10,589 nt of DNA from Candidatus Thorarchaeota archaeon (GCA_048884785.1 JBHLQM010000084.1:1-10589), one strand, 5' to 3'. Numbered from the stretch's first letter, positions 1,057-10,589 are shown. Numbers and translations: made by a program. Notes: generated from the letters alone by a model not told the origin.

Positions 1057-1140
1057 CCGACCTCATGGCAACGATAGCCTAAGAAGGACGAGGCCCATGC
1101 CTTGCCCAGAGTCACTATTGGCTCGATGGAGTGTACAATC

Positions 1141-2130
1141 ATGCCCTTGCTGGACATTCGAAATCTTAGGATGTACTACCAAACACAGAAGGGTCTTGTA
1201 AAAGCAGTCGACAACGTTTCCCTGACTCTGGAACCTGGTGAGTCAATTGGACTAGCAGGTGAATCAGGTTGCGGGAAGTCAAGCCTAGCATATTCAATTA
1301 TGCAACTTCTTCCGCCTGCAGCGAACTTAGTCGGTGGAAATGTGTACTTCAAGGGTGAAGACTTAATTCGCAAGACCGCGAAGGAAATGCGCGATATCCG
1401 TTGGAAGAATGTTGCTATTGTCTTCCAAGGCGCAATGAACGCGTTGAATCCTGTCTTTGAGATAGGAGAACAGATTGCTGAAGCTATTCTCATGCATGAG
1501 AATGTGACTGAGGAAGAGGCATTAGACCGCTGTGCAAAGCTCTTTGAGATGGTAGGTCTCGACCCAAGTCGTATTCATAACTATCCTCACGAATTTTCAG
1601 GAGGTATGCGACAGAGAGCTATGATCGCTATGGCTCTTGCATGCAATCCTGATCTCGTTATTGCAGATGAGCCTACTACAGCCCTTGATGTCACAATTCA
1701 AGCGCAAATCTTGAAGCTCATGCAGAAGCTTCAGAAGGATCTTGGTCTTTCACTCATTCTGATTACACATGACCTGAGTGTTATTGCTGAAACCTGTGAT
1801 AAGACCGCAATCATGTACGCCGGAAAAATAGTTGAGCTAGCAGATGTTGTTTCTGTATTCAAGGATCCTATCCACCCATATGCTACTGGTTTAGTAGGTG
1901 CAATTCCTAGTATGGTGAAGGCTGAGCAGAAGAAGCTAACTTCTATTCCAGGATCTCCACCAGATCTTATCTCACCTCCGCCAGGTTGTAGATTCCATCC
2001 TAGATGCCCATATGCTCAAGACATTTGTTCTAAGGAAGACCCATTGCCACTTGAAATAGAGCCTGATAGGTTTGTTTCCTGTCACTTTGCTGAGCAGCTT
2101 AGAGGCGAGATTCAAATAGACTTGGAGTGA
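1141..2130 (+). CDS. dppD: Peptide/nickel ABC transporter ATP-binding protein, DppD/OppD type
   Basis: Walker [10 protein letters not shown]-loop [12 protein letters not shown], signature [12 protein letters not shown], Walker [14 protein letters not shown]-loop ITHD, and a C-terminal HPY domain with GCRFHPRC...C...CHF. Start is placed at ATG 1141 (MPLLDIRNL) rather than TTG 1102 because GGAGTG precedes it. Confidence 0.95.
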
Positions 2131-2133
2131 TAG

Positions 2134-3195
2134 ATGTTGACAATAGACGAATCAAGAGTACTGCAGGGTTCAGATGACATCAAAGATGGCGAAACTCTAA
2201 TTTCCGTCAGGAATATGCGAAAATGGTTTGCAGTAAACACAGGTTTTCTATCATCAATGTTGTATAAACAAGAACTATTTGTGAAGGCAGTAGATGGAGT
2301 CAGCTTTGATATTAAGAAAGGAGAAGTACTTGTACTGGCAGGGGAGTCAGGTTGCGGAAAAACCACAACTGGCAGATGTATTCTCCATCTTGAGATTCCG
2401 ACAGACGGAGATGTAATCTATGCTGGCCAAAACCTAGCAACCCTTGACAGGAACGAAATTAAGGAACTTAGGAAGCGAATGCAAATCACATTCCAAGATC
2501 CCTACGAATCACTCAATCCGAAGCAAAGCATTTTCAATATTGTTCAAGAGCCACTGATGGTTCATAAAATACCCCTAACTCCAAGCCAGAGGCGTCAGAG
2601 AGTCCTTGAGGCAATGGAGAGTGTTGCTCTCACACCAGCCGAGGACTACATTGATAGATTTCCTCACGAGCTGTCCGGCGGACAGAGACAAAGAATATCG
2701 GTGGCTAGAGCTCTTATTTTGCACCCCGAGTTTATGGTGGCAGATGAACCAGTTTCGATGCTCGATGTGTCCATTCGTGCGGAAATTCTGAATCTACTGC
2801 TAAACCTACGTGAAGAGCTTGGTCTCACCTACCTGTTTATCACTCATGACCTTGCTGTAGCAACATATATAGCTGATAGAATCGGAATTATGTACCTCGG
2901 GAAGGTTATGGAATTAGGACCAGCCCATGATGTCGCTTTCACTCCAATGCATCCGTATACGAGAGCCTTGATTTCGGCTGTACCCTCTGGAGACCCAACT
3001 GTGAAAAGGCGTATAGAGTCATTGAAGGGAGAGCCTCCGAGTCCTATCAATGTGCCTTCAGGTTGTCGCTTCCATCCCAGATGTCCTTATGCGCAGGAAA
3101 TCTGTGTGAGAGAGGTTCCTGAAGATAGAAACATAGGTGATGGACATATTGTCGCATGCCACTTCGCTGGCGAATTGCCTGAAGTTCAACTTTAA
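2134..3195 (+). CDS. dppF: Peptide/nickel ABC transporter ATP-binding protein, DppF/OppF type
   Basis: VKAVDGVSF, Walker [48 protein letters not shown], and an HPY domain with four conserved Cys. The RBS GGAGTGA overlaps the dppD stop. Confidence 0.95.
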   Translation: MLTIDESRVLQGSDDIKDGETLISVRNMRKWFAVNTGFLSSMLYKQELFVKAVDGVSFDIKKGEVLVLAGESGCGKTTTGRCILHLEIPTDGDVIYAGQNLATLDRNEIKELRKRMQITFQDPYESLNPKQSIFNIVQEPLMVHKIPLTPSQRRQRVLEAMESVALTPAEDYIDRFPHELSGGQRQRISVARALILHPEFMVADEPVSMLDVSIRAEILNLLLNLREELGLTYLFITHDLAVATYIADRIGIMYLGKVMELGPAHDVAFTPMHPYTRALISAVPSGDPTVKRRIESLKGEPPSPINVPSGCRFHPRCPYAQEICVREVPEDRNIGDGHIVACHFAGELPEVQL

Positions 3196-3201
3196 AATTG
3201 A

Positions 3202-3235
3202 AATTACGGGTGATTCCCTTGGAACGCCCGTAATT
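3202..3235 (+). terminator. Stem-loop directly after dppF (terminator or mRNA-stabilising hairpin)
   Basis: AATTACGGG (3202-3210) pairs perfectly with CCCGTAATT (3227-3235). The stem continues through U.G, G-C, a bulged A and TTCC/GGAA around a CTT loop. No long T tract follows. Confidence 0.55.
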
Positions 3236-3270: not shown

Positions 3271-3711
3271 ATGATGACAGATACTGCTGACCGACTACGC
3301 ATCTTGCGAGCAATAAGGAAATGCTTGGCAGATGGTGAAGAGTATTTCCAGAAGGCTATGGACATACTTGATGAGATAGGTAAAGGTTCAATCGGTGTAG
3401 GTATGACTCCATTAGTAGGAGGATACGCAATAAAAGATCCAAAAAGCCATTATCGTGGTGCATTGATTGAAATCGACTCAGCTGAAAGGGCACTAGAACC
3501 GCTCATAACTCGATTCAGAGATGGACGAGTTAATGAGTCTCATTTCAAATCAAAAGATGCTATTGTCTTGCTGGGAGATCTTGCTGGTGTAGATTATAAC
3601 TATATTGTGAGAAAACTAGCTGATCAATCAGGTCGAGAGTCCACTTGGTATCGATTGAAAGAACTTAGAGCTAAAATCGAACAACTGCTAGGATTAATTG
3701 CAGATGCCTAG
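3271..3711 (+). CDS. Hypothetical protein, probably a soluble alpha-helical bundle
   Basis: 146-aa ORF with AAGGTGAA directly upstream, amphipathic helical patterning and no competing ORF. No family recognised. Confidence 0.8.
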   Translation: MMTDTADRLRILRAIRKCLADGEEYFQKAMDILDEIGKGSIGVGMTPLVGGYAIKDPKSHYRGALIEIDSAERALEPLITRFRDGRVNESHFKSKDAIVLLGDLAGVDYNYIVRKLADQSGRESTWYRLKELRAKIEQLLGLIADA

Positions 3712-3803: not shown

Positions 3804-4475
3804 ATGTCCAACAGTTTTGAACCGATGAGTATTCTCAAAGAACTTGAACGCGCAGAACACGTTCTCAACAACCTTCTGCATAAACTCTCGAATCTTTACA
3901 CAAATCTCGAGCCGATGGAAAGTGTCCTTAGAGTCAGTGATTTCTCTTCAAGTGGTATGATTGTTCCGGGGTCGATGACTGGGATTGTGTGTGCATTGAC
4001 TGCGGATATTAAAGGTGATCCAATTTACAAGGTCTTAGAATTGCTCAAAGGCAAAGGCCTGAAACTTCCAGCTATCATCAAGGGATCTGATCGAACTGAA
4101 TCAATAGAAACCTGTGATTCAATCATGAAGATTATCAAAGCGCAGTTCAATCAGAAAATAACTCGCTTGCTGGTGAATCTGAGATGGTCATCGCTGCCAC
4201 CTATAATTGAAAATGACAATGTCGTAATTATCGGAACAAGATACATACATGGGAATTCACAAGATATTGCGAGATTTAAAAATAGACTCAAAGAATTGAA
4301 CATAGACGTTTTTGAAGACAACGGCGAATTTGGGGGAGGTTTACTGACATATAAACTGACTACCTTTGCTAGAGAAGTTGATAATGTAATTGTGCTCGAG
4401 CTCACTCTCTCTTCAGCACTTTCGGAAGATGTTTCAATGATGGCAAGGATTTTGGAAGCTATAGCTACGCCTTAG
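3804..4475 (+). CDS. Hypothetical protein with N-terminal helix and degenerate N-formylglutamate amidohydrolase (Zn-exopeptidase)-like domain
   Basis: 223 aa. Motif order RLLVNLRWS / VIIGTRY / EDNGEFGGGLLT / VIVLELTLSSAL parallels the FGase pattern llDcHS / ivlGt.yg / N.pf.GGyiT / vhaiQiEi.r.ly. The CDS itself is well supported; the fold call is by eye. Confidence 0.6.
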   Translation: MSNSFEPMSILKELERAEHVLNNLLHKLSNLYTNLEPMESVLRVSDFSSSGMIVPGSMTGIVCALTADIKGDPIYKVLELLKGKGLKLPAIIKGSDRTESIETCDSIMKIIKAQFNQKITRLLVNLRWSSLPPIIENDNVVIIGTRYIHGNSQDIARFKNRLKELNIDVFEDNGEFGGGLLTYKLTTFAREVDNVIVLELTLSSALSEDVSMMARILEAIATP

Positions 4476-4484
4476 GTGTTCATT

Positions 4485-7400
4485 ATGAGTTCATTCTCAA
4501 ATGCTTCAGAGATGCAATTACCTTTTCCTCATGGAGTAGAGATTGAACTTCAGGTCATTCGCAAGGACGGCACATGGATTCGAGGTGAAGATGTTCTTGA
4601 AATCTTTGACAAGATTGTATCAAGTGCAAAGGGATTGCTGGATAAGAAGATACGAACCTCTTCAGTAGAAACTGTAAGGCAGAAGTATGAGCAATCTTCA
4701 CAAACAGAAGAAGGAGAAAGGGGGTCAAGAATAGTTGCAACATACAAAGATCCAGCAGGAAATCCCAAAGAATACACGCTCCTAGGACATGATCCAAACG
4801 TGGTCAGTCTGACATGGATTTTAGAAGTAGCAACACCGCCATGCACTACGCTTGAAGAACTTGCATGGTGGATTCAAACACTCATAGCAATAACATATGA
4901 ATCTCTACCAAAAGACTCCCAGGCAATTCTCATCTCCACAGGTTTGAATCCAACTCAAGAGTATCTTAGGAATCTGTCCTTTGGGGAACATCACCATATC
5001 CTCAGTGAAGATGTTGATGAAACCATAAAGATTGCTGTGTATAATATGATTCGAAATTTCATCCCACATCTGATTGCTCTGTCTGTAAATTCGCCATTTG
5101 AAAGCAAGAAACCAAGTGATGAAATTAGCATTGATGAAGATGGAATTGTCCGAGCTCCACGCTGTAAGAGATCAATTAGACTCTTTAGAAACACAACACA
5201 GATGGGGCCAACAAATGAGTTTGAATTTATACCCCATATTCGAGTAGCAGATAAAGATGCTTTTGCCAAACATGTCAATAGAAGCTATTCAAGAATGGTT
5301 GACTGTTACCCATTCACAGATTATGGAACTATCGAGCTTAGAGTCTTCGATACACAACTGAGCATCCCAAGAAGAATGGGACTAGCACTAATCCTTCAAG
5401 CTCTAGCTTTGAAAGCAAAACGTATGATTGAGAATGGTGAAGCAATACCTGATGTGGGCGCAAAGTCACTAAGTGCAAACAGAGCCTCTGCTGTGGCGGC
5501 AGGTCTATGGGGACCATTTAGACCAGGAGAGGGTTCCGATGAATATCATACGGTCTATAACCATCAAGTATCTGATGGTGGTAGTGTTGATACCGCAAAA
5601 CGAAACAGATTCCTTGGCGATGCTGTAATATCAATGCTCTATCTTATCCGTGATGAACTTGATGAACTAAAGGTTGTTGAAAATCCATTCATGCAAGCTT
5701 TACTTGTGTCTGTGTTTGGGAGTGAGTACACAAATCCACGAACTACCGAAGCTGATTTTCAACTTGATGTCTATGCTAAATCAGATTACAATATGGTCGT
5801 ATTATTAAAGCGTCTTGCAGAAGTCACAAGAGAATGTAGCACAAATTGGCTTTACGATCCAATAGAGGGAACCCCTCATCTTCCTACTTGGTTATGTTGG
5901 TGGAAAGGACTCGAGCCAGAAATAGTCATAGACACAGACAGAACATTTGCAGGTCAAGAGGCAGAGTTCTCTATCCTAATCCGCAACAGCACGGGAAGGA
6001 ACCTTGATAATCTGACGGTTAAATATTCAGTTGAAGATTCATTAAGAAATACTATAGACAATAATCTTCTTGCAATTGATAGTATTGAAACAGGAGAAAT
6101 ACATGTTTCTCGAGTTGCATTCCCGACTCGAAAGGACACCTCTGCATACAATATTATTATGGAAGTGGGCTTTGCTGGACGCCAAATCAACCTTACAAAT
6201 ACAATTAACATGTACTGGATGAGCGCGTCAGTGCGTCCTGGTACAACAACTCAATTTGCAGATGGAAAAACGCCTGTTCTGTTCAACGGTGAGATTGAAA
6301 CCAATTATGCATCCGACTCACTTGTGAATTGCCAAATCAATATCCTTGCGCCTAATTTGGAGCGAATCATAGTTGGTACTGCAGAGATGCTCAGGGTGGA
6401 TGCTGGGGAAATCACTACGTTTGATAGCTCGTTCTTCCCATCACTCATTATTCCCCCGGATATCGCGGAAGGCGTGGAAAGATGTGTGCTGCAGATACGT
6501 TTGATGAATGAAGAGGGTACTGAGATAGCTGAAAGTACATCAAAGCCCTTCTATGTGGGTTTCGTTAAAAGAGGCCCACAAATCATCTTCGAGTCGGATT
6601 TGAAGAGCAGCTACACACCAGGTGAATTGGTTGTAGGGCATATTGTAGTAAGTGACAGAAATAATACAATTGGACCATCAGCAAGAATGATGGTTGACTA
6701 CTATTCTGAATCCGGGAAAACTACTGATATTGAAACTTTTCAGTATGAGGAATTCATGAAAGGAAGTGCGACCTTTCAGTGGAGAATCCCAAGAGCAGAT
6801 GTCATGCCTCAAATTGAGAGAGTAGGTGTTATCAGAGTACGTGTGATTGAGAGAGGAAATGTCATTACATCGATTGAGTCAGATAGATTCAGTATAGACC
6901 AAGTGACTACTCGAGTCAATCTAGATTCTATGAGAGTTCCTCAGCGTTCTCATATTGGGGGCAAAATATCAGGATGGTTACGCATACGGAGAAACACTGA
7001 ACAGGGAGACCCAGCCTTTCTTACATTATCATTTGTCTTTCCTGATGATGAAGAACATGTTGTTCTTAGACAAGCAGTGAAGCAAAGTAAGAATCTATCC
7101 TTGGCTTTCGGACCACTGACCATCCCAGCCTCAAAAAGAAGCACGAGCCCTAAATCTGTCAAGCTTGTGGCTGTGCTTAGCTATGTAGGTCTAGAGATGG
7201 ATAGACGGTCAACAACCATTGATTTAGTAGGAGGCCCCTCAGCAGATTTTGCGCGGATTGACTTCATTGGACTCCCGAGTTTTACAGTACCAGATCAGAT
7301 GCTTCAAGTGACAATCCAGGTCGAATCTGGTTTGAGAGAAACAATAGATTGCGTTCTTTCAGTGGGACTTGAATCTATTGCGGGCAACTCCATTCTTTTT

Positions 7401-7910
7401 GAGAGGAATATCAATCTTGAACCAGGAAAGCCAAAGATGATTCCGGTACCCTTCAGAGTGCCTCTAGGTGCAGAAATGAGTACTGCTCATTTGAAGGCAG
7501 TGCTCATGTGTGGCTCTCAATCCTGTGAAAACAGCCAGCGCTTTAAGGTAAAAGCAATAGAAAAACCGTTCTTCAATGTTGGATTTTCCATAAGGAATGA
7601 AGCAGGTGAAGAAATACCCGGACTTGTTGCCAGACTTACTCCTGTAGAGATTATTGTGGATATAGAGAGTGCAAGAGAAGATTTGCAGGACCTTGGGATC
7701 AATGTGAGAGTTATATCAAGACGCGACATAATCAAGGAGTTTGATATCCCACTTTCCAATCAAAAGAAGAATACAGTTTCTATGAAATGGCTTACACCCC
7801 CTATTGATGTTGTGACCGGCTATTTTCTAGATGCTGAAATTTCACAACATGGACGCCCTCTCCCGCATCGTGCAGTTGAGATGGTGAAAAAACAATTCAC
7901 TGTCTATTAG
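4485..7910 (+). CDS. Glutamate--cysteine ligase family 2 (GCS2/YbdK-like carboxylate-amine ligase) fused to ~6 beta-sandwich (Ig-like) domains
   Basis: N-terminal motifs in canonical order: GVEIELQV, GHD...ILEVATPPC, STGLNP, FGEHHHI, PHLIALSVNSPF, SIR, YGTIELRVFDTQ. From nt ~5913 the sequence is all beta-strand patterned. Start is placed at ATG 4485 because AGGTG (4474-4478) is suitably spaced as an RBS; the ORF track starts at GTG 4476. Confidence 0.85.
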   Translation: MSSFSNASEMQLPFPHGVEIELQVIRKDGTWIRGEDVLEIFDKIVSSAKGLLDKKIRTSSVETVRQKYEQSSQTEEGERGSRIVATYKDPAGNPKEYTLLGHDPNVVSLTWILEVATPPCTTLEELAWWIQTLIAITYESLPKDSQAILISTGLNPTQEYLRNLSFGEHHHILSEDVDETIKIAVYNMIRNFIPHLIALSVNSPFESKKPSDEISIDEDGIVRAPRCKRSIRLFRNTTQMGPTNEFEFIPHIRVADKDAFAKHVNRSYSRMVDCYPFTDYGTIELRVFDTQLSIPRRMGLALILQALALKAKRMIENGEAIPDVGAKSLSANRASAVAAGLWGPFRPGEGSDEYHTVYNHQVSDGGSVDTAKRNRFLGDAVISMLYLIRDELDELKVVENPFMQALLVSVFGSEYTNPRTTEADFQLDVYAKSDYNMVVLLKRLAEVTRECSTNWLYDPIEGTPHLPTWLCWWKGLEPEIVIDTDRTFAGQEAEFSILIRNSTGRNLDNLTVKYSVEDSLRNTIDNNLLAIDSIETGEIHVSRVAFPTRKDTSAYNIIMEVGFAGRQINLTNTINMYWMSASVRPGTTTQFADGKTPVLFNGEIETNYASDSLVNCQINILAPNLERIIVGTAEMLRVDAGEITTFDSSFFPSLIIPPDIAEGVERCVLQIRLMNEEGTEIAESTSKPFYVGFVKRGPQIIFESDLKSSYTPGELVVGHIVVSDRNNTIGPSARMMVDYYSESGKTTDIETFQYEEFMKGSATFQWRIPRADVMPQIERVGVIRVRVIERGNVITSIESDRFSIDQVTTRVNLDSMRVPQRSHIGGKISGWLRIRRNTEQGDPAFLTLSFVFPDDEEHVVLRQAVKQSKNLSLAFGPLTIPASKRSTSPKSVKLVAVLSYVGLEMDRRSTTIDLVGGPSADFARIDFIGLPSFTVPDQMLQVTIQVESGLRETIDCVLSVGLESIAGNSILFERNINLEPGKPKMIPVPFRVPLGAEMSTAHLKAVLMCGSQSCENSQRFKVKAIEKPFFNVGFSIRNEAGEEIPGLVARLTPVEIIVDIESAREDLQDLGINVRVISRRDIIKEFDIPLSNQKKNTVSMKWLTPPIDVVTGYFLDAEISQHGRPLPHRAVEMVKKQFTVY

Positions 7911-8260: not shown

Positions 8261-9187
8261 ATGTTTGAGATACTAGCATATCCGGCAGTTTCCGGATTAT
8301 TGGTGATGGGCGTTGTTGGAGCCTTGGCTTATAAGGCTCATTTTGTTGACATATCAGGTCTAATCAGTGCCTTCATTGTAGGATTTACAATCTGGTACAC
8401 TGGAGGAGTTTCAGCTTTTGTGATCATTCTGTTTTTCTTTCTGAGCGCGGGAGTTGCTACTAAATACAAGTACAAGGTAAAGATTCAGAAGAACGTTGCC
8501 CAAGAAGGTAAGGGCAAGAGATCGTGGAAAAATGTGTTTGGTAGCGGTCTCATTCCGATGATGTTCTCGGTTGCTGTATACCTCACTAGACTTTCTCCTG
8601 ATTTGGCAGCCGCAGGTTGGCCATTCTTTCTATTTGGAGGATACGTAGGTGCAGTGGCAACAACATCTGCAGATACTCTAGCTAGTGAGCTTGGCGTCTT
8701 TAGTAGGAGCAAACCAAGACTTATAACAAATCTTCGACGAAAAGTCCCCAGTGGCACAATTGGGGCGGTATCACTCCTAGGAGAAGCCGCGGCTCTTCTA
8801 GCTGGACTTTCAGTCGGCCTTATTGCTATCTTCTTTGCAGTATTTACCCCTGGATGGGTACCTGCTGTGACAACCACTGAGCATGTGATCTTCCTTGTTC
8901 CTTTGGCTGTCTTAACTGCATTCATTGGATGTAATGTTGATAGTTTCCTTGGTGCATCTTTTCAGAATAGATTCGTATGTGAAATCTGCGGAGCTGTTAC
9001 TGACAAGGATTTCCACTGCGATTACGAAACAAAATATGTTGGAGGCTTCAAGAGCTTTACAAACATGCATGTGAATTTTGGCTCATCAGGAATGGGGGCA
9101 ACACTTGGTGTCCTTCTCGGGGCGGGTTTGTTTGTATGGATACTCGGCGGTCTATTCTTCTGGATTGCAGCATCATCTAGTAGCTAA
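8261..9187 (+). CDS. DUF92/TMEM19 family integral membrane protein
   Basis: Multiple TM helices and the family pattern SGLISAFIVG, FFLSAGVATKYKYKVK, RSWKNVFGSG, SADTLASELG, PRLITNLRRKVPSGTIGAVSLLG, VDSFLGASFQ, FTNMHVNF. Confidence 0.9.
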   Translation: MFEILAYPAVSGLLVMGVVGALAYKAHFVDISGLISAFIVGFTIWYTGGVSAFVIILFFFLSAGVATKYKYKVKIQKNVAQEGKGKRSWKNVFGSGLIPMMFSVAVYLTRLSPDLAAAGWPFFLFGGYVGAVATTSADTLASELGVFSRSKPRLITNLRRKVPSGTIGAVSLLGEAAALLAGLSVGLIAIFFAVFTPGWVPAVTTTEHVIFLVPLAVLTAFIGCNVDSFLGASFQNRFVCEICGAVTDKDFHCDYETKYVGGFKSFTNMHVNFGSSGMGATLGVLLGAGLFVWILGGLFFWIAASSSS

Positions 9188-10530
9188 GTCTTTCCGGTTT
9201 TATCCTCCTCGAATTCTATCCCATATTCAAACGCTTTCTTGATTGTTGAACCATCGATAATCCTTTTCATAAAGCCCGCAACAAACCAACGTGTCAGTTC
9301 AGTAGACTTGCTGCTGCTTTGAACCGACACTTCTTGCTCTTCCACCATATTTAGCTTGTAGATATTCTTCGTTTCTTTGATAATAATCGCTGCATCTGAA
9401 ATTTCCCGGATCTTCTGTATTGGTTTAGGAGTCATAGTGCGACTAAGATGACGCCAGACCTGATTTGAGAGAATGAGTGTATCAACCTGAACAAGAACAG
9501 GTTTCAACCAATCAAGACCCATCTCCCAAAACGGGACAGAACATCTATACACAAGTGGAATTCCATGAGCTTTTGCATATGCAGCGATTGATGCAGCAAC
9601 TTCTACAAACAACTCACCAATGTACACGGCTTTCGCCTTTTCCACTATACTCCAAGGAACCTGAGAGGGAGAGTTAATTGAAAGAGACGTGATTGGGCCT
9701 ATCCCAACAAGCATCCGGGACTTGTTGTTTTCTGAAATAATAATTGACTCGTTTGTAGACTTACCATCCTCGACGACGATGTTTGTGACATCGACATCTC
9801 CTTGAATCAGCTGAGTAATGACTTCCCAACCTTCAAGGTCGTTTCCTACGGATGACACTAAAGATGTGTCAATACCTTCTCCTGCCAAAGCTATTGCAAG
9901 CTCAATTGTAGACCCACCTGGCGACCGAACGGGAGAACTACAACTAGCGAGTCCACCAATGGGTGGAATCTTGGCGCATTCTATTCTGGTATTGTATGCA
10001 GACGCACCAAAGACAACTATGTCAGGTTGTGAATATTTGGAGGAGTCTTCAAGTATTGCCTTTGCACGAGTACGTGCGAAAATTTCAAACAACCTAGATT
10101 CTGGAATACTAAGATCTTTGTAGAGAGTTGTTAGTCGGATCAGATAATCCTCTAATAGAAATGCAGTGAGCTCTTCAATATCTGAGGGCAAGCCTTCAGA
10201 ATAGAACCGAGCAAATCCCCATCCGCTCTTTGTAAGCTCATGATAGACAACACGCTTCCCATTATGAATAGTTGATGCAGTCGTGATTAGACCAAATCGA
10301 CTGAGTATTTTAAGGTACGAGAGAATACTCTTGTTTGAATGCCGGAGATTCTCAATGAGATCCCGTTGCAATACACGACCATCTTCACGAAAGCTTGAGA
10401 GCACGCTACGAGTGATTCGCGATGCCATAACAGTACGGATGAATTCATCTCTGACCTCGTTGTCTGATGGAAGAAAGAGCAGATAGGGCCAGAGAGGTTC
10501 AATTGGATTTACTTCGACCATTCCCAACAT
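9184..10530 (-). CDS. Winged-HTH domain fused to a degenerate PfkB/ribokinase-family domain (probable transcriptional regulator)
   Basis: N-terminal wHTH pattern (VLQRDLIENLRHSNKSILSYLKILSRFGLI...GKRVVYHELTKSGW), a helical linker, then the PfkB scaffold DIVVFG, SPGGS, LAIALAGEG, VSSVGNDLEG, DVDVTNI, FVAGF. The start could be 10536 (TTG), 10530 or 10521 (ATG). Its stop overlaps the DUF92 stop by 4 bp (9184-9187). Confidence 0.85.
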   Translation of the reverse strand: MLGMVEVNPIEPLWPYLLFLPSDNEVRDEFIRTVMASRITRSVLSSFREDGRVLQRDLIENLRHSNKSILSYLKILSRFGLITTASTIHNGKRVVYHELTKSGWGFARFYSEGLPSDIEELTAFLLEDYLIRLTTLYKDLSIPESRLFEIFARTRAKAILEDSSKYSQPDIVVFGASAYNTRIECAKIPPIGGLASCSSPVRSPGGSTIELAIALAGEGIDTSLVSSVGNDLEGWEVITQLIQGDVDVTNIVVEDGKSTNESIIISENNKSRMLVGIGPITSLSINSPSQVPWSIVEKAKAVYIGELFVEVAASIAAYAKAHGIPLVYRCSVPFWEMGLDWLKPVLVQVDTLILSNQVWRHLSRTMTPKPIQKIREISDAAIIIKETKNIYKLNMVEEQEVSVQSSSKSTELTRWFVAGFMKRIIDGSTIKKAFEYGIEFEEDKTGKT

Positions 10531-10589
10531 CTTCAAATATCGGTTTACTACGCTCTACAAGTGTACAATCGTACCTATGTAGTTTACTG

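Follow-up and report, generated by a model that had tools for sequence, protein, structure and literature searches.

The gene pair and its junction

The whole 10,589-nt stretch of Candidatus Thorarchaeota archaeon GCA_048884785.1 JBHLQM010000084.1:1-10589, referred to below as the window, contains at 3804-7910 a module of two genes. The first encodes a protein of 223 amino acids (aa), P0001, and the second a carboxylate-amine ligase of unusual size. The features of this pair are reported here, with their evidence; the flanking genes are listed further below.

3804..4475, + strand: 223-aa protein P0001, member of an orphan Asgard family, with a phosphorylase/hydrolase-like alpha/beta domain (structure and profile comparisons)
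3831..3938, + strand: amphipathic N-terminal helix, residues 10-45, with an L14-E15-R16-A17 motif (AlphaFold2, AF2; hydrophobic moment; conservation in 50 sequences)
4317..4340, + strand: D172-N-G-E-F-G177-G178-G179 loop, between strand 168-172 and helix 180-191 (conservation in 50 sequences)
4473..4487, + strand: junction, with stop codon, Shine-Dalgarno-like motif and start codon (sequence reading and comparison of 14 loci)
4485..5834, + strand: ligase catalytic domain, residues 1-450, YbdK/GCS2-type carboxylate-amine ligase (PF04107, motif blocks, AF2)
5910..7910, + strand: all-beta tail of the ligase, residues 476-1141, about 6-7 beta-sandwich macroglobulin-like domains (AF2, Foldseek, weak Pfam MG2)

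The junction reads ccTTAGGTGttcattATG, with TAG at 4473-4475, AGGTG at 4474-4478 and ATG at 4485. The ligase open reading frame (ORF), ending at 7910, may start at GTG 4476 or at ATG 4485; the latter is the start of the database protein P0100, which is 1141 aa long. Measured to this ATG, the distance from the stop of the 223-aa gene is 9 nt, and AGGTG lies 6 nt upstream. Both features had been pointed out by a first-pass annotation, made from the sequence alone: the 9-nt distance and the overlap of the TAG with the ligase ribosome-binding site are found as described, AGGTG sharing bases with the stop codon. Read from the sequence, the overlapping AGGTG is a Shine-Dalgarno-like motif of the ligase. 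The arrangement recurs: across 14 related loci the spacing of the two genes varies between -20 and +17 nt, and (a)GGTG is located 5-9 nt upstream of the ligase start in most Thorarchaeota loci and in one more distant locus.

Conservation of the pair in Asgard genomes

The coordinates of matches to a profile of the 223-aa family and to the ligase domain were compared in 151 Asgard genomes. The ligase domain is present in 63 of them; homologues of the 223-aa protein are 31, from five families. Of these 31 homologues, 29 are directly upstream of a ligase that has the same orientation, and two are located at contig ends. The pairing is kept in at least five Asgard families and in at least four gene contexts; the proposal of a coupled two-gene module, advanced on the window alone, is supported in this respect.

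Within the pair, domain composition varies. In family f9 the partner is larger (576-613 aa): an Ig-like domain at the N-terminus and the hydrolase-fold domain at the C-terminus are separated by a helical region; the corresponding ligase is short, 546-573 aa, and has no beta-sandwich tail. The f9 loci are L067:8357-10198, L104:4297-6027 and L105:4458-6245. The presence of an Ig-like domain on one partner or on the other would fit a shared complex.

The ligase

The ligase matches PF04107 with 24.2 bits, against a cut-off of 21. The match to TIGR02050 (E 1e-16) is below its cut-off, and all NCBIfam cut-offs for YbdK/GshA subfamilies and equivalogs are missed; because of these low NCBIfam scores, the protein is best described as a divergent member of the GCS2/YbdK group. 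It has no match in PADLOC or PHROGs. Three blocks align to the YbdK structures 1r8g and 1tt4: G-x-E-x-E, FG-x-H-x-H and GT-x-E-x-R-x-x-D. Eight residues (E19, E21, E114, H169, H171, E284, R286, D289) are invariant in 25 ligase sequences, and the ligase looks catalytically competent.

The AF2 model consists of an alpha/beta domain, residues 1-450, and of an all-beta tail, residues 476-1141. The top Foldseek matches of the tail are the macroglobulin (MG) domain arrays of C3/C4/C5, alpha-2-macroglobulin and CD109, with E from 1e-21 to 1e-16; a weak Pfam MG2 match is also found in the tail. The ligase had been described as Ig-tailed, and the predicted tail, with its macroglobulin/complement matches, agrees with this description. 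Its repeats are visible in the structure only: a BLAST self-comparison of the tail reveals no sequence repeats. Compared with YbdK/GCS2 (1r8g), this ligase is about three times longer, owing its length to a macroglobulin-like tail of about 660 residues, and has no signal peptide.

The 223-aa family

P0001 has no match in Pfam, NCBIfam, PHROGs or PADLOC. Its ORF may be taken as a real gene, since 53 close homologues are known, of almost constant length and with E down to 1e-129, together with 45 representatives at 50% clustering. Every named member of the former set is from Thorarchaeota; the latter are all the relatives found by a phmmer scan of 1.84 billion representatives, the lowest identity being 23%. 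A profile search of a 5.8-billion-protein collection, started from a 50-sequence alignment, returned family members only, with no bridge to any named family; it added one relative, labelled Candidatus Freyarchaeota. When PDB sequences were searched by profile, coiled-coil designs matched the N-terminal helix, and no match was obtained for the domain. On these searches the family is an orphan, so far found only in Asgard archaea.

Residue conservation was counted over 50 family sequences. D172, G177 and G178 are invariant and G179 is conserved in 98% of the sequences; G144, R146, G179 and T201 are all conserved at 90% or above, and E199 in 84%. No conserved His, Cys or Ser, and no metal-ligand position, is found in the 50 members. 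E199 is replaced by Q in several members, and by D in the most distant homologues, those of families f7 and f19, where R146 is lost. The f9 fused forms keep [DN]xxFxGG alone. The D172-loop-GGG is the sole invariant signature across the family. The two tetra- and tripeptides singled out by the first-pass annotation, NLRW and ELT, are present as quoted, at residues 125-128 and 199-201.

The same annotation had described an amphipathic helix of about 35 aa at the N-terminus. The AF2 model places a helix at residues 10-45; residues 9-30 are strongly amphipathic, with a hydrophobic moment of 0.5-0.57 and a heptad-like spacing of 3-4 between hydrophobic residues, in full accord with that description. 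L14 and R16 are conserved in 78-86% of the 50 sequences. In the model, the helix is a probable protein-docking or coiled-coil element.

Fold and structural relatives

The AF2 model, generated from a 41-sequence alignment, has a predicted local distance difference test score (pLDDT) of 82.8. The long helix is followed by a three-layer alpha/beta domain (residues 50-223), whose conserved residues are found where strands end and where a helix begins. The best structural match is pyroglutamyl peptidase I (Peptidase C15, PF01470; 4gxh, 1iu8, 1aug): 23 entries align to model residues 57-223 with Z 10.2-11.2 and a root-mean-square deviation (rmsd) of 3.0-3.4 over 142-152 residues. FGase (PF05013) follows closely, with Z 10.2 and rmsd 3.5 over 165 residues for 2q7s, and Z 8.8 for 2odf. 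The three-layer alpha/beta fold is also shared by M42 TET peptidases (Z 9.9) and, more generally, by M42/M28/M20 Zn exopeptidases (Z 9.4-9.9), as well as by the PNP and MTAN nucleosidases (Z 9.2-9.8). In the ESM Atlas, the best named neighbour of the model is a FGase cluster (TM 0.59/0.62).

Profiles for FGase, Peptidase_C15 and PAC2 were built from Asgard genome hits, and compared with the family profile by hhalign. The comparison with FGase scores 25.8 (P 0.006) over 99 columns; as controls, 30 column shuffles reach 18.6 at most, and a reversed profile 16.7. Peptidase_C15 scores 25.2 (P 0.005) over 39 columns, which include a helix, a strand and the nucleophile loop; both matches are weak, and to the same degree. 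A further candidate, PAC2/PbaB (PF09754), had been suggested by Foldseek, where PbaB 3vr0 ranks third (E 5.7e-5, TM 0.48). The profile comparison gives it no support: against 15 Asgard PAC2 proteins the score is 11.7-14.4, equal to background, and no Pfam PAC2 match is found.

Since the scores of FGase, pyroglutamyl peptidase I, M42 and PNP tie, the assignment to FGase is plausible but unspecific. As far as the predicted model goes, the phosphorylase/hydrolase-like fold of the domain is established; the specific family is not. Of the resemblance to FGase/Zn exopeptidases originally proposed, the fold and a colinear alignment with the FGase profile therefore stand, while specificity for FGase, in view of the ties with C15, M42 and PNP, does not.

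Catalytic positions

In the alignment with FGase, which is colinear, the D.H motif falls on L-R-W, with W128 opposite the His, YsGG falls on FGGG, and Q.E on E199/T201. The PH and D.NR motifs, as defined by the consensus of 13 Asgard FGases, fall on TA and D..ES, and have no counterpart in the family. The earlier reading of these positions (NLRW in place of DxHS, ELT in place of QxE, no PH motif) is reproduced by this mapping, at a hhalign probability of 6%. In the alignment with pyroglutamyl peptidase, the sAGT[YF]xCN nucleophile loop pairs with the D172-GGG loop.

Each of the structural relatives differs from the family at the active site. Peptidase C15 enzymes have a Glu-Cys-His triad, which is missing here, the position of the catalytic Cys being occupied by G178; moreover, unlike pyroglutamyl peptidase I, the 223-aa protein carries an extra N-terminal helix of about 45 residues and is paired with a ligase. 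M42/M28/M20 enzymes bind metal by His, Asp and Glu ligands, whereas the family has no conserved His and features only D172 and a mostly acidic residue 199; the protein is also much smaller than M42 or M20 enzymes. For PNP/MTAN, the phosphate and ribose motifs have no equivalent in the family.

Direct searches agree. PF05013, whose gathering score is 28.9 bits, does not match P0001 at E <= 0.1; one of the 31 relatives matches at E 0.015, below the cut-off, and is not among the ten members that were rescanned. A search of the window's own genome with PF05013 returned nothing, and in the Thorarchaeota family a genome search gave 0/26. For PF01470, there is no Pfam match for either P0001 or its relatives. 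Judging from the alignments, the catalytic residues have been lost, no matter which family the protein descends from.

An active enzyme of atypical kind would still be conceivable, able to reverse, edit or mature the amide formed by the ligase. Here the acid pair D172/E199 would replace the metal or the Cys nucleophile, and R146, T201 and the Gly-rich loop would act as oxyanion or carboxylate binder. The fold, typical of hydrolases acting on Glu-derived amides, is in favour of such an enzyme, as are the invariance of D172, the prevalence of acidic residues at 199 (E in 84%, D in f7 and f19) and the location of the conserved residues at the ends of strands and at the start of a helix. The lack of conserved His, Cys or Ser weighs against it, together with the Q found at 199 in several members, the loss of R146 in f7/f19 and the reduction of the signature to [DN]xxFxGG in the f9 fusions. 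With the evidence on divergence and neighbours given in the next section, this alternative appears unlikely, though it is the strongest among those considered.

Divergence, gene loss and the amidohydrolase neighbour

The two members of the pair evolve at different rates. Relative to the window copy, partner identity in a series of loci is 70/49/32/23/25/30%; in the same loci, identity of the ligase domain is 89/83/73/72/70/68%. The ligase tail (82-41%), the 146-aa protein encoded upstream of the pair (86-48%) and OppD/F (86-98%) were compared in the same loci. The partner may also be missing. In genome G143, which is 94% complete, the ligase is found 191 nt after a 145-aa gene, the 223-aa gene is missing from the locus, and no family member is found elsewhere. 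In G055 a 708-aa ligase paralogue is located behind OppDF and a 142-aa gene, with no 223-aa gene between.

Fast divergence, along with the loss of the gene from two Thorarchaeota genomes in which a ligase is retained, fits a non-catalytic accessory role, short of proof. The same two observations, divergence being about three times faster than for the ligase domain, count against the atypical hydrolase discussed above.

Rapid evolution is also compatible with the 223-aa protein being the acceptor, or substrate, of the ligase, modified on a side-chain or terminal carboxylate or amine. Some carboxylate-amine ligases do modify proteins, as PafA does in pupylation. The upstream position, which resembles that of a precursor gene, and the single invariant acidic residue would also fit. 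Yet the C-terminus varies within the family, 180 residues of the protein form a folded domain rather than a short tag, and in G143 the ligase persists without it. Such a role is very improbable, the least probable of the alternatives weighed here.

A second type of hydrolase is found near ligases of this family. Amidohydro_2 (PF04909) proteins of about 460-500 aa accompany them in families f7, f19, f22 and f27; in f27 the gene is directly upstream of the ligase, and in f22 a homologue fills that slot. The loci are L063:1664-3133, L064:1352-2812, L100:4677-6068 and L101:4821-6248. An unlinked Amidohydro_2 homologue, 42% identical, is located on contig C2 of the window's genome. The occurrence of a true PF04909 amidohydrolase beside the ligase in these four families suggests that a genuine reverse enzyme exists separately, in line with a non-catalytic 223-aa partner. 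For the atypical hydrolase, on the other hand, the recurrence of ligase-hydrolase pairing, and a genuine Amidohydro_2 in the upstream slot of f22/f27, are points in favour.

Gene neighbourhood

The other features of the window are the following.

1102..3195, + strand: OppD-like and OppF-like ABC ATPases, 342 and 353 aa (Pfam ABC_tran and oligo_HPY; NCBIfam OppD/DppF-like)
3271..3711, + strand: 146-aa helical protein, of a family without a name (48-86% identity across all Thorarchaeota loci)
8261..9187, + strand: DUF92 integral membrane protein (PF01940, E 2e-64)
9184-10536, - strand: winged helix-turn-helix (wHTH)-PfkB-like gene, overlapping the end of the DUF92 gene (neighbour of DUF92)

In Thorarchaeota the order OppD-OppF-146aa-223aa-ligase-DUF92 is found in L001-L008, L011 and L062. 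The 146-aa protein has no family match in Pfam, NCBIfam, PHROGs or PADLOC. Its sequence has changed less than that of the 223-aa protein, and it is still encoded in G143 and G055, which lack the 223-aa gene; it is probably a third, Thorarchaeota-specific component of the module. In L011:4327-6396 the OppD/OppF genes are joined to the 146aa-223aa-ligase block, and genes for Opp permease and binding proteins are not adjacent; the association of the OppDF ATPases with the module may be closer than that with the transporter. The DUF92 gene, a constant downstream neighbour in Thorarchaeota, is present in L001-L011, L009 included, and a 72% identical homologue in L062. The wHTH-PfkB-like gene is absent from its position beside DUF92 in L008, L009 and L011.

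Just past the oppF stop (3193-3195), at 3203-3234 on the + strand, an 8-bp inverted repeat, ATTACGGG ... CCCGTAAT, is followed by a T-rich stretch, and then by a GGTGA Shine-Dalgarno-like motif upstream of the 146-aa gene. The repeat may mark the place, between oppF and the module, where a transcript ends or begins or is processed.

A second full cluster is located in the same metagenome-assembled genome (MAG), on contig C6 of G000 (L062:3453-8106, - strand), and is composed of OppDF, a 146-aa protein, a 224-aa protein, a 1151-aa ligase and DUF92. Compared with the window copy, identity is 30% for the partner and 68% for the ligase domain; other genomes carry one copy. Both clusters are about 70-71% identical, at the nucleotide level, to a same-genus genome, and MAG contamination is 5.4%: the second copy may be either a paralogue or the result of a binning mixture.

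Outside the typical Thorarchaeota arrangement the neighbours change. OppDF precedes the module in Thorarchaeota alone, and is absent beside the pair in L009, f7, f19 and f9. In L009, the most divergent relative, the Opp and 146-aa genes are both absent, and an EAP30 (ESCRT-II-like) protein of 807 aa is encoded 5' of the pair (L009:4576-6999); it features a C-terminal EAP30/Vps36 domain, and its gene ends 1 nt before that of the 223-aa homologue. At the equivalent position of L102 (5560-7944, family f6), a 794-aa protein is followed by a 214-aa protein without the FGGG motif. In f7 and f19, a conserved coiled-coil protein of about 400 aa is followed by a 247-263-aa homologue and then by the ligase (about 1185 aa); VWA and Amidohydro_2 genes are convergent to them. 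The coiled-coil proteins range from 385 to 452 aa, with a C-terminal coiled coil and weak ATG17-like/Sec10_N matches (L063:9175-10371, L064:8820-10097, L065:8524-9681, L066:8752-10110). A second, longer ligase paralogue (1230-1410 aa) is encoded elsewhere in f7/f19 (for instance L099:1618-5817); no upstream partner of the 223-aa family is recognisable there.

These neighbours are relevant to another possibility, that the 223-aa gene shares a transcript with the ligase while its product works with other proteins of the module (the 146-aa, coiled-coil or EAP30 proteins, or OppDF), for example as a scaffold or regulator, without touching the ligase. The upstream neighbour varies by lineage and is always tightly packed against the 223-aa gene, at 1 nt for the EAP30 gene in L009 and abutting it for the coiled-coil protein in f7/f19; the conserved, coiled-coil-like N-terminal helix could pair with such helical proteins. 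The ligase is, however, the sole neighbour common to all contexts. Each of the 146-aa, coiled-coil and EAP30 proteins is restricted to a lineage, no homology being detected between the 146-aa protein and the coiled-coil protein, the EAP30 protein or the N-terminal region of the f9 partner, and the f9 fusion is still directly upstream of the ligase. Work with such partners alone is rather improbable, clearly more so than an atypical hydrolase.

A proposed non-catalytic subunit of the ligase

A hydrolase fold without catalytic residues, encoded directly 5' of the ligase in several Asgard lineages, indicates that the 223-aa protein is probably a non-catalytic helper of the ligase. The fuller statement, that it is a pseudo-enzyme derived from a hydrolase fold of the pyroglutamyl-peptidase/FGase type, and serves the ligase as accessory or adaptor subunit, is the one that we favour, and we give it about an even chance of being right.

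How such a subunit might operate can be outlined. The two proteins would be translated in coupled fashion, and the amphipathic N-terminal helix would dock the 223-aa protein onto the ligase, or onto another protein of the module. The D172-x4-G-G-G loop would lie at the N-terminus of a helix, where relatives hold the nucleophile or the substrate, and could maintain a putative pocket able to bind a small ligand of acidic or amide type, possibly one derived from Glu. The protein may use this pocket to present, recognise or gate the substrate, or the product, of the ligase. By analogy, a Glu-type ligand is a reasonable guess, because the structural relatives all have Glu-derived amides as substrates, and Glu is among the carboxylates that GCS2 ligases activate.

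Several points weigh against the favoured interpretation. Contact between partner and ligase remains putative; when alignments of the 223-aa protein and of residues 1-480 of the ligase were used to predict a complex, the outcome was no answer (score 0.00), which weighs neither way. The mapping of the lost catalytic positions rests on hhalign alignments of low probability (6-8%, P ~0.005). A non-canonical, acid-based hydrolase is conceivable, because active sites of this fold are formed at the ends of strands, and it is there that D172, the acidic residue at 199, T201 and R146 are found. Small proteins in general also tend to diverge fast. Finally, an amidohydrolase of active type occupies the upstream slot in f22/f27, and the slot could call for hydrolase activity.

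A broader picture may be drawn around the pseudo-enzyme: the pair could be the core of an Asgard-specific conjugation system, where a YbdK-type ligase on a macroglobulin-like scaffold works with a pseudo-hydrolase "reader", which picks an acidic or Glu-type group on peptides or proteins, for attachment to targets. The logic would resemble that of pupylation, and in some lineages the system would be wired to ESCRT-II-like (EAP30) proteins, or to coiled-coil and VWA proteins. This is a speculative proposal, and an improbable one, slightly less probable than work with other partners alone.

Among known prokaryotes, Asgard archaea are the nearest relatives of eukaryotes, and the majority of the genes specific to their lineages are without an assigned function. 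The pair described here, found so far only in Asgard genomes, joins an unusually large amide ligase to a hydrolase-fold protein without recognisable catalytic residues. If the partner is a specificity or regulatory subunit, the pair would be a clear example of a ligase that has recruited a pseudo-enzyme, and a starting point to find the ligase substrate; if it is an unconventional hydrolase, it would represent a new catalytic solution on an old fold.

Comparison with known ligase-hydrolase pairs

Literature searches for this gene pair in Asgard archaea found no paper describing it. Gene pairs of a ligase and an amide hydrolase are known, such as EgtA/EgtC, PuuA/PuuD and PafA/Dop. The pairing of COOH-NH2 ligases with amide hydrolases was reportedly treated as a theme by Iyer et al. 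in 2009. In such neighbourhoods, COOH-NH2 ligases have been termed peptide synthetases (PMC2938197).

As in EgtA/EgtC, PuuA/PuuD and PafA/Dop, a ligase of the glutamine-synthetase/GCS type is found here beside a protein of hydrolase ancestry. Unlike in those systems, the partner occurs only in Asgard archaea, diverges rapidly and has no catalytic residues, and Ig-like domains are present on the ligase or, in f9, on the partner. The pairing of a ligase with a hydrolase fold is thus a known theme; what is new is an orphan, Asgard-only family, the complete loss of catalytic residues, the extreme divergence relative to the ligase, and the movement of Ig-like domains between the two genes.

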